Shown here one piece after another: positions 16,374 through 17,589 of a stretch of DNA of 35,113 nt. The notes below the pieces were generated by a model. That model was not told where the DNA came from. It was given only the letters and a program-made list of their open reading frames with translations, and ran no database searches. This DNA is from Escherichia coli (lineage in GTDB: Bacteria; Pseudomonadota; Gammaproteobacteria; Enterobacterales; Enterobacteriaceae), in NCBI RefSeq assembly GCF_003334335.1, contig NZ_QOWQ01000044.1; one strand, given 5' to 3'. How positions within the stretch are numbered: the first letter of the stretch is position 1; each line of letters opens with the position of its first letter. The position numbers were made by a program, and so were the translations under genes.

Positions 16374-17273
16374 ATGCTCTCTCGACATATCAATTATTTT
16401 CTTGCCGTGGCTGAACATGGCAGCTTCACCCGTGCCGCCAGTGCGTTGCACGTCTCCCAACCTGCGCTTTCCCAGCAGATTCGCCAGTTAGAGGAGAGTT
16501 TAGGCGTGCCGCTGTTTGACCGTAGCGGGCGAACGATTCGTCTCACTGATGCAGGAGAAGTCTGGCGACAGTACGCCAGCCGGGCGTTACAGGAACTGGG
16601 GGCGGGTAAACGGGCGATTCATGATGTTGCCGATCTGACGCGAGGATCGCTGCGTATCGCCGTCACCCCCACCTTTACGAGCTACTTTATCGGCCCCTTA
16701 ATGGCGGATTTCTATGCGCGCTATCCCAGCATCACGCTCCAGCTACAGGAAATGTCGCAGGAGAAAATCGAGGATATGCTTTGCCGCGACGAGTTGGACG
16801 TTGGGATTGCCTTCGCGCCTGTGCATTCGCCGGAGCTGGAGGCAATTCCTTTACTGACAGAAAGTTTAGCGTTAGTCGTGGCGCAACATCATCCGCTGGC
16901 CGTCCATGAACAGGTGGCGTTGAGTCGCTTGCATGATGAAAAACTGGTCCTGCTCAGCGCGGAATTTGCCACCAGAGAGCAAATTGACCACTACTGCGAG
17001 AAAGCGGGGCTACATCCACAGGTGGTCATTGAGGCGAACTCAATTAGCGCGGTTCTGGAGCTGATTCGCCGCACTTCCCTTTCCACATTGTTACCAGCAG
17101 CGATTGCCACACAACATGACGGGCTTAAAGCTATTTCTCTTGCCCCGCCACTACTGGAGAGAACGGCGGTTTTGTTGCGGCGGAAAAATAGCTGGCAGAC
17201 AGCCGCCGCGAAGGCATTTTTGCACATGGCGTTGGATAAATGCGCGGTTGTTGGCGGAAATGAATCACGGTAG
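16374..17273 (+). CDS. cynR: LysR-family activator of the cyn operon
   Basis: ORF track starts at 16290; ATG at 16374 ([22 protein letters not shown]..., 299 aa) gives the LysR HTH at the N-terminus; divergent from cynT. Confidence 0.92.
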
Positions 17274-17589
17274 CCGCTGACACAGGTCTGCGGCTGGAAT
17301 TGCCTGATGCGCTACGCTTATCAGGCCTACGAGTTCAGTGCTCTACGTAGGCCGGATAAGGCGTTCACGCCGCATCCGGCATAAACTACAGCTGGCAGAC
17401 AGCCGCTGCGAAGGCATTTTTGCACATGGCGTTGGAGGAATGCGCGGTTGTTGGCGGGAATGAATCACGGTAGCCGCTGACACAGATCAGCGGCTGGAAT
17501 TGCCTGATGCGCTACGCTTATCAGGCCTACGAGTTCAGTGCTCTACGTAGGCCGGATAAGGCGTTCACGCCGCATCCGGCATAAACTAA
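17190..17589. repeat. 2 x 200-bp tandem direct repeat (cynR 3' end + hairpin + REP pair)
   Basis: Copies at 17190-17388 and 17390-17588 differ at about 6 positions; each carries the last 28 codons of cynR including TAG, a short hairpin and two inverted REPs. Confidence 0.92.

Follow-up and report, generated by a model that had tools for sequence, protein, structure and literature searches.

Organization of the codA-cynR region

The window, that is, the whole stretch of 35,113 nucleotides of Escherichia coli DNA analysed here, carries cynR and codA in convergent orientation, separated by a gap of 336 bp. This intergenic region holds an array of two tandem 200-bp units, the first of which begins inside cynR. 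The features of the region are the following (positions are those of the window).

16374-17273, + strand: cynR, coding for a 299-aa LysR-type regulator of the cyn operon (open reading frame and translation; RefSeq annotation of the identical K-12 sequence)
17190-17389, + strand: unit 1 of the tandem duplication, with the real cynR 3' end and the derived residues DK
17272-17295: hairpin 1, starting inside the cynR stop codon, with a T.T mismatch in the stem (-15.9 kcal/mol) and no T-run after it
17290-17388: the BIME, the longest identical run between the units (99 nt) and putative crossover site for the one-unit and three-unit alleles
17301-17330, - strand: z2-type REP of unit 1, with its GTAG on the - strand and repeated without change at 34856-35070
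17347-17381, + strand: y-type REP of unit 1, headed 5' by GTAG on the + strand and repeated without change at 101-135 and 34902-34936
17389-17390: duplication junction, ...AAACTAC followed by AGCTGGCAG...; a 40-mer spanning it is diagnostic for at least two units
17390-17589, + strand: unit 2 of the tandem duplication, identical to unit 1 at 193 of 200 positions
17390-17473, + strand: cynR pseudo-C-terminus (SWQ...), which keeps the ancestral residues EE and lies in phase 2 relative to cynR
17472-17495: hairpin 2, with a perfect 10-bp stem (-17.2 kcal/mol)
17501-17530, - strand: z2-type REP of unit 2
17547-17581, + strand: y-type REP of unit 2
17610-18893, - strand: codA (cytosine deaminase), convergent with cynR, its stop codon 20 nt beyond unit 2

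The repeat search and Tandem Repeats Finder (period 200, score 755) agreed on two adjacent units, 17190-17388/9 and 17390-17588/9. Ungapped comparison of unit 1 with unit 2 revealed 7 mismatches in 200 positions (96.5% identity), namely 17207 C/T, 17237 T/G, 17238 A/G, 17258 A/G, 17286 G/A, 17289 T/A and 17389 C/A, and the binomial probability of at least 193 matches in 200 by chance is about 2e-105. A preliminary description of this DNA had reported a 200-bp tandem duplication carrying the 3' end of cynR, a hairpin and a REP pair, with about 97% identity between the copies. The three analyses confirmed the duplication, and the measured value of 193/200 is in agreement with the reported identity. 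The units are arranged head to tail and in register, with a similarity above chance, as in a tandem duplication or variable-number tandem repeat. Apart from the 99-nt run, no identical run between them exceeds 29 nt.

Each unit is composed of the last 84 nt of cynR, a hairpin overlapping the stop codon, a z2/y pair of REPs and 8 further nt, and its left edge coincides with a codon boundary of cynR. It encodes the last 27 sense codons of cynR and the stop codon TAG (17271-17273 in the gene itself), with the variable residues being DK in unit 1 and EE in unit 2. Two of the four coding differences are synonymous (17207 and 17258), as had been noticed before, and the other two are non-synonymous (D to E and K to E). 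The differences at 17237 and 17238 are adjacent (GAGGAA to GATAAA, EE to DK) and look like one tandem double substitution. The pseudo-C-terminus had been described as lying in the same frame as cynR. This did not hold: since 200 leaves a remainder of 2 when divided by 3, the cynR fragment of unit 2 is in phase 2, offset by 2 nt from the frame of cynR and placed behind its TAG. In other genomes, PGAP annotates this pseudo-C-terminus as an incomplete hypothetical protein with its N-terminus missing.

Hairpins and REP elements

Folding bore out the earlier observation that the hairpin is mismatched in copy 1 (-15.9 kcal/mol) and perfect in copy 2 (-17.2 kcal/mol), and the same order, a mismatched hairpin in the first unit and a perfect one in the later units, was seen in 7 of the 7 arrays read. 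In the terminator scan, neither 17272-17295 nor 17472-17495 combined a GC-rich hairpin with a T-run as an intrinsic terminator does. The promoter and terminator scan of the array detected no promoter-like sites or canonical terminators beyond chance; two terminator-like sites were found in the region against 1.1 expected, which is within chance, and both were located at 17190-17207 on the - strand. At that position a small hairpin followed by ATTTTT, in the sense direction of codA, marks the exact left edge of unit 1 inside cynR. When the array was searched against Rfam at a permissive E-value, no family scored above threshold and no RNA gene is proposed; sub-threshold matches were to the REP-derived naRNA4.

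The REPs of the array, assigned to the z2 and y types from the known consensus sequences, are GTAG-headed imperfect palindromes with exact copies elsewhere in the window, where none would be expected by chance. REP-containing queries match a median of 21-39 places per genome. In each unit the z2 and y REPs are inversely oriented around a 16-nt linker, and the pair has the z2 + y composition that Ton-Hoang et al. (PMC3333891) give as the rule for BIME-2. The array thus resembles BIME-2 tandem arrays in its z2 + y pair, its head-to-tail repetition and its strain-variable copy number. However, ordinary BIME arrays, which in the window have a period of 93, repeat only REPs and short linkers, whereas the cynR unit measures 200 bp and includes about 110 bp of unique DNA, its composition being extended by the 84 nt of cynR and a non-REP hairpin. 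What sets the cynR array apart from ordinary BIME arrays is the large share of unique DNA, over half of the unit.

Other REP arrays were observed in the window. Positions 34856-35113, cut by the end of the window, form an ordinary BIME array (period 93, 2.8 copies) whose z2 and y REPs have the sequences found in the cynR unit; its BLAST pattern suggests copy or phase differences from B strains. A further identical y REP is found at 101-135. Another tandem array at 25092-25377 (period 93, 3.1 copies, 95% matches) is built from a different REP pair and lies between prpC and prpB according to the annotation of AS19. The corresponding region is about 93 bp longer in AS19 and BL21, equivalent to one extra unit, so the copy number of this array is polymorphic between K-12 and B.

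The codA-cynR locus has already been cited in print. Ton-Hoang et al. (2012, NAR 40:3596; PMC3333891) list "codA-cynR from E. coli" among BIMEs that have taken up a piece of a gene, point to their Supplementary Figure S7 for it, and suggest that TnpA-REP was responsible for the capture. The published K-12 case and the array of the window concern one and the same locus of E. coli, at which the window and MG1655 agree in every base, and as far as the published description in words goes no structural difference is seen. The duplication is therefore already known, being part of the K-12 reference, cited in print and a common polymorphism; what is added here is incremental, namely the copy-number spectrum in the population, the reciprocal crossover products and a test of the breakpoints.

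Copy number of the unit among E. coli genomes

A 2801-bp stretch of MG1655 (NC_000913.3) matched window positions 16964-19764 exactly, and the codA-cynR gap of MG1655 is 336 bp, as in the window, so that the duplication is indeed present in the K-12 reference, as had been supposed from the gap length. A 40-mer at 17370-17409, which seeds only across the unit junction, was then searched in 5426 complete E. coli genomes. An earlier 121-nt junction query had overcounted (1781 genomes), non-colinear pieces having been joined and single-unit genomes having reached 80% coverage. With the 40-mer, the junction was detected in 1541 of the 5426 genomes (28%), including K-12 derivatives, BL21 and other B strains. 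The matches fell at 1741 places in 1543 records, with a maximum of 2 per genome.

About 200 chromosomes had two junctions and none had three. Three-unit counts are taken from these junction matches, and at least one genome with two matches (11899A_LBHALD) represents a rearrangement rather than an intact array; every intact two-junction array checked (CRE78, NCTC11023 and Evo1) contained three units.

That one copy might be an assembly artefact had been raised as a worry in the preliminary description. Apart from the general risk that accompanies tandem repeats, nothing speaks for an assembly or sequencing artefact. The two units differ at 7 positions, and 1541 complete genomes, each assembled independently, contain the junction, MG1655 and BL21 among them, as do seven F'-type plasmids. 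The duplication is therefore not an assembly artefact, and the probability left to this explanation is negligible.

A comparison of one-copy and two-copy alleles across E. coli had also been proposed, and it yielded alleles of one, two and three units, next to alleles with less than one full unit:

No BIME: 39-bp gap, perfect 10-bp hairpin (O111 RM9322; contig DXKH01000124.1)
One BIME and a partial hairpin: 132-bp gap (O157:H7 OK1)
One full unit: 146-bp gap (0H23), or 136-bp gap on a K-12-type flank (AS19, H10407, MB19)
Two units: 336-bp gap (K-12, BL21, 14EC007, C10)
Three units: 536-bp gap (CRE78, NCTC11023, Evo1)

A copy number that varies between strains at the same locus, here from 1 to 3 units, is what characterizes a variable-number tandem repeat. 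The genomes devoid of the duplication, roughly 70%, have a single unit, no BIME or no cynR. The single-unit form made of hairpin 1, the BIME and the K-12-type flank was found in at least 77 records. Many genomes matched on the codA side only, which agrees with a report that group B2 strains lack cynRTSX (PMC2617782).

Seven conjugative plasmids, 214-242 kb in size and derived from laboratory cultures of K-12 (NZ_CP014273.1, NZ_CP014271.1, NZ_CP117961.1, NZ_CP053606.1, NZ_CP053608.1, NZ_CP128219.1 and NZ_CP132549.1), also carry the junction. Presumably they are F' episomes with the lac-cyn-cod segment of the chromosome. In 11899A_LBHALD (NZ_CP130447.1), unit 2 is broken 30 nt past the junction by an IS3-family transposase fragment, the gene that follows is paaY and not codA, and about 1.1 Mb separate it from the second copy of the junction. 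This points to a rearrangement of the chromosome that broke within the array. A contig scan with a codon-degenerate pattern returned a single contig, DXKH01000124.1, and no other Escherichia species. This contig belongs to a metagenome-assembled genome labelled Citrobacter sp., and at about 2900-5650 (reverse strand) it matches cynR and codA of E. coli with 97% identity and has the allele that lacks a BIME. Either its assignment to Citrobacter seems to be a mistake of binning or taxonomy, or the contig may stem from a divergent Escherichia lineage.

Polarity of the unit differences and exchange between units

All the single-copy and no-BIME alleles (0H23, O157, O111 and DXKH01000124.1, the last being E. 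coli-like at 97% identity and thus only a weak outgroup) encode EE, as GAGGAA or GAAGAA, at the two variable codons. It follows that the DK of K-12 unit 1 is derived and that the ancestral pair survives in the pseudo-copy. Unit 2 carries the derived base at 17207 and 17286, and at 17289 it retains the ancestral A, as in the no-BIME hairpin. Other arrays display different combinations of these SNPs, with extra variants at 17201 and 17248, and the units can thus be regarded as mosaics shaped by exchange. The exact DK-type sequence occurs in about 1416 records (72-mer query, matches of at least 99% counted), this 72-mer being not fully exclusive, with 358 records at 90-95% and variants with A at 17258 still seeding.

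Short tandem duplications change copy number by RecA-dependent unequal exchange or by RecA-independent slipped misalignment, and Lovett and colleagues have reportedly worked on the deletion and expansion of tandem repeats in E. coli. The cynR array resembles such duplications in having 1-3 copies, in the occurrence of both reciprocal products and in the location of the exchanges in the longest identical run. Unequal homologous exchange or slipped misalignment, mostly in the 99-nt BIME run, would have generated the alleles of 1, 2 and 3 units after the initial duplication and shuffled the unit SNPs. An exchange within this run is predicted to give, on the one hand, an array of unit 1, unit 2 ending in C and unit 2 ending in A and, on the other hand, a single unit 1 ending in A. 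Both reciprocal products were found, the three-unit form in CRE78 and Evo1 and the single-unit form in AS19 and H10407, which consists of unit 1 plus a terminal A. Similarly, MB19 corresponds to unit 1 of NCTC11023 plus a terminal A, and is read as the collapse product of an NCTC11023-type array.

AS19 and BL21 differ by about 10 mismatches in 35 kb, and either strain differs from the window by about 230. AS19, represented by the assembly GCF_002993265.1 of AS19-RrmA-, shares the B haplotype and has one unit; BL21 has two. This indicates a probable recent and precise loss of one unit in AS19, unless a short-read assembly collapsed the 99-nt identical run. A chimeric query joining the upstream part of cynR to unit 2, as a collapse at the extreme left of the unit would leave it, matched one record at 99% or more, and the best identity among the matches listed was 98.2%. 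Exchanges at the far left edge of the unit have thus led to collapse rarely, if at all.

The preliminary description had considered the duplication as a candidate for recombination that would fuse or truncate cynR. The array is indeed a substrate for recombination, but the predicted damage to the gene was not observed. When an in-register crossover was simulated at every position, CynR always kept 299 aa, with a C-terminus of the DK, DE or EE type, as every collapse or expansion is in register, and all the natural alleles of one, two and three units examined carry an annotated cynR of 900 bp. Recombination in the array swaps only two C-terminal residues of CynR (D/E and K/E); it neither fuses nor truncates the protein.

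Origin of the duplication

In C10 both units end in C and are followed by GCTCGCTG, which argues that the original event was an exact 200-bp duplication. The two-unit allele of C10 probably preserves the exact original state, the terminal A of K-12 (17589) being a later substitution. With C10 taken as ancestral, the breakpoints (marked here by a caret) are T^A inside cynR (17189^17190) and C^G at 8 nt past the y REP; on the bottom strand they read C^G and T^A. The duplication joined these ends as C^A. The duplication would have arisen by a single non-homologous join, lacking microhomology, between the site inside cynR and the site 8 nt past the y REP. All the junctions were 100% or 97.5% identical to the query, the single mismatch being 17401 A/T in both 97.5% arrays read (14EC007 and C10). 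Only one type of junction was thus seen, which argues for a single origin, and it is from this one junction that we infer the mechanism.

A microhomology-mediated origin was considered and rejected: shared GCT/AGCT ends would give a period of 199 bp and a junction one base short, and C10 shows exactly 200 bp. If the terminal A were ancestral instead, AGCT would be present at both ends, and either microhomology or a C^T join, off by one inserted base, would apply.

REP-mediated duplications of large chromosomal segments, with join points inside REPs, have been described in Salmonella. The cynR array is similar to these in having REPs next to one end of the duplication. It differs from them in that its breakpoints lie outside the REPs, the join was made without homology, and the duplicated segment is of 200 bp and not of kilobases.

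The presence of REPs also bears on the published suggestion that TnpA-REP (RAYT, yafM) captured the flanking cynR fragment during amplification of the BIME. In this scheme, the Y1 transposase would bind a GTAG REP and cut single-stranded DNA at a distant site inside cynR and at another next to the BIME; a further unit would then be added by strand transfer or by synthesis of a rolling-circle-like kind. Several features are consistent with it: each unit carries a GTAG REP on each strand, the window has ordinary BIME arrays of period 93 as well, and no more than 8 nt separate the right breakpoint from the y REP. The left breakpoint is 157 nt from that REP, so both are within about 400 nt of a functional-looking REP. 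Ton-Hoang et al. (PMC3333891), who name codA-cynR as a BIME unit with a gene fragment, describe cleavage in vitro at distances of over 400 nt from a functional REP. However, the in vitro cleavage reported there occurs at C^T, and neither strand of the breakpoints (T^A and C^G) nor the junction (C^A) fits this. The paper itself calls the in vivo mechanism unknown. In addition, a single junction type in 1541 genomes gives no sign of recurrent enzymatic activity, and the later changes in copy number are fully explained by homologous exchange in the 99-nt run. The breakpoints as read from C10 do not support an origin generated by TnpA-REP, though one extra base would reconcile them with it, and we consider such an amplification unlikely.

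In its boldest form, this proposal would make the array a natural footprint of TnpA-REP (RAYT) transduplication of a host gene fragment, with the one-base misfit to C^T attributed to imprecise joining. This seems rather improbable. If it were true, sequenced strains with one, two and three units and an intact junction of the ancestral type could make the locus a test system in vivo for the mobilisation of REPs and BIMEs, a reaction yet to be demonstrated.

Possible function of the array

On both strands the hairpin and BIME give stable folds, with z-scores of -4 to -5. This stability could be taken as a sign that the array is a selected regulatory feature, either insulating the convergent cynR and codA transcripts through termination or 3'-end protection, or acting as a recombinational switch between the DK and EE forms of CynR. 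Such a role would also be compatible with the frequency of the allele (28% of complete genomes), with the mismatched hairpin coming first and the perfect one later in all seven arrays read, and with two adjacent non-synonymous changes in the functional copy, the pseudo-copy having the ancestral residues. Yet roughly 70% of the genomes do without the duplication, and no T-run or canonical terminator accompanies the hairpins. The frequency could also result simply from clonal inheritance within lineages that have been sampled heavily, K-12 and B for example, and the substitutions are too few for a test of selection. A selected function is therefore regarded as very unlikely.

The array is instead assumed to be close to neutral. 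Unit 1 retains the whole of cynR together with a hairpin and a BIME that belong to it. The downstream units would contribute an untranslated, out-of-phase pseudo-C-terminus and a second hairpin and BIME, which would be the first 3' structures on the codA transcript. No promoter-like site, canonical terminator or Rfam family having been detected in the array, the extra unit is treated as near-neutral; it is assumed to add at most a second hairpin and BIME between the convergent genes.

Taken together, the cynR array is a tandem duplication of variable copy number that very probably arose once by a non-homologous event, later changed by homologous exchange or slippage, and would be functionally near-neutral. 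The finding carries little weight for biology at large. Annotators should expect a cynR pseudo-fragment at this place, which PGAP labels as an incomplete hypothetical protein. The copy number (1-3) is a cheap strain marker and also a possible source of errors in assembly and variant calling. Moreover, the locus offers matched natural alleles with which exchange between tandem repeats could be measured or the TnpA-REP hypothesis tested.
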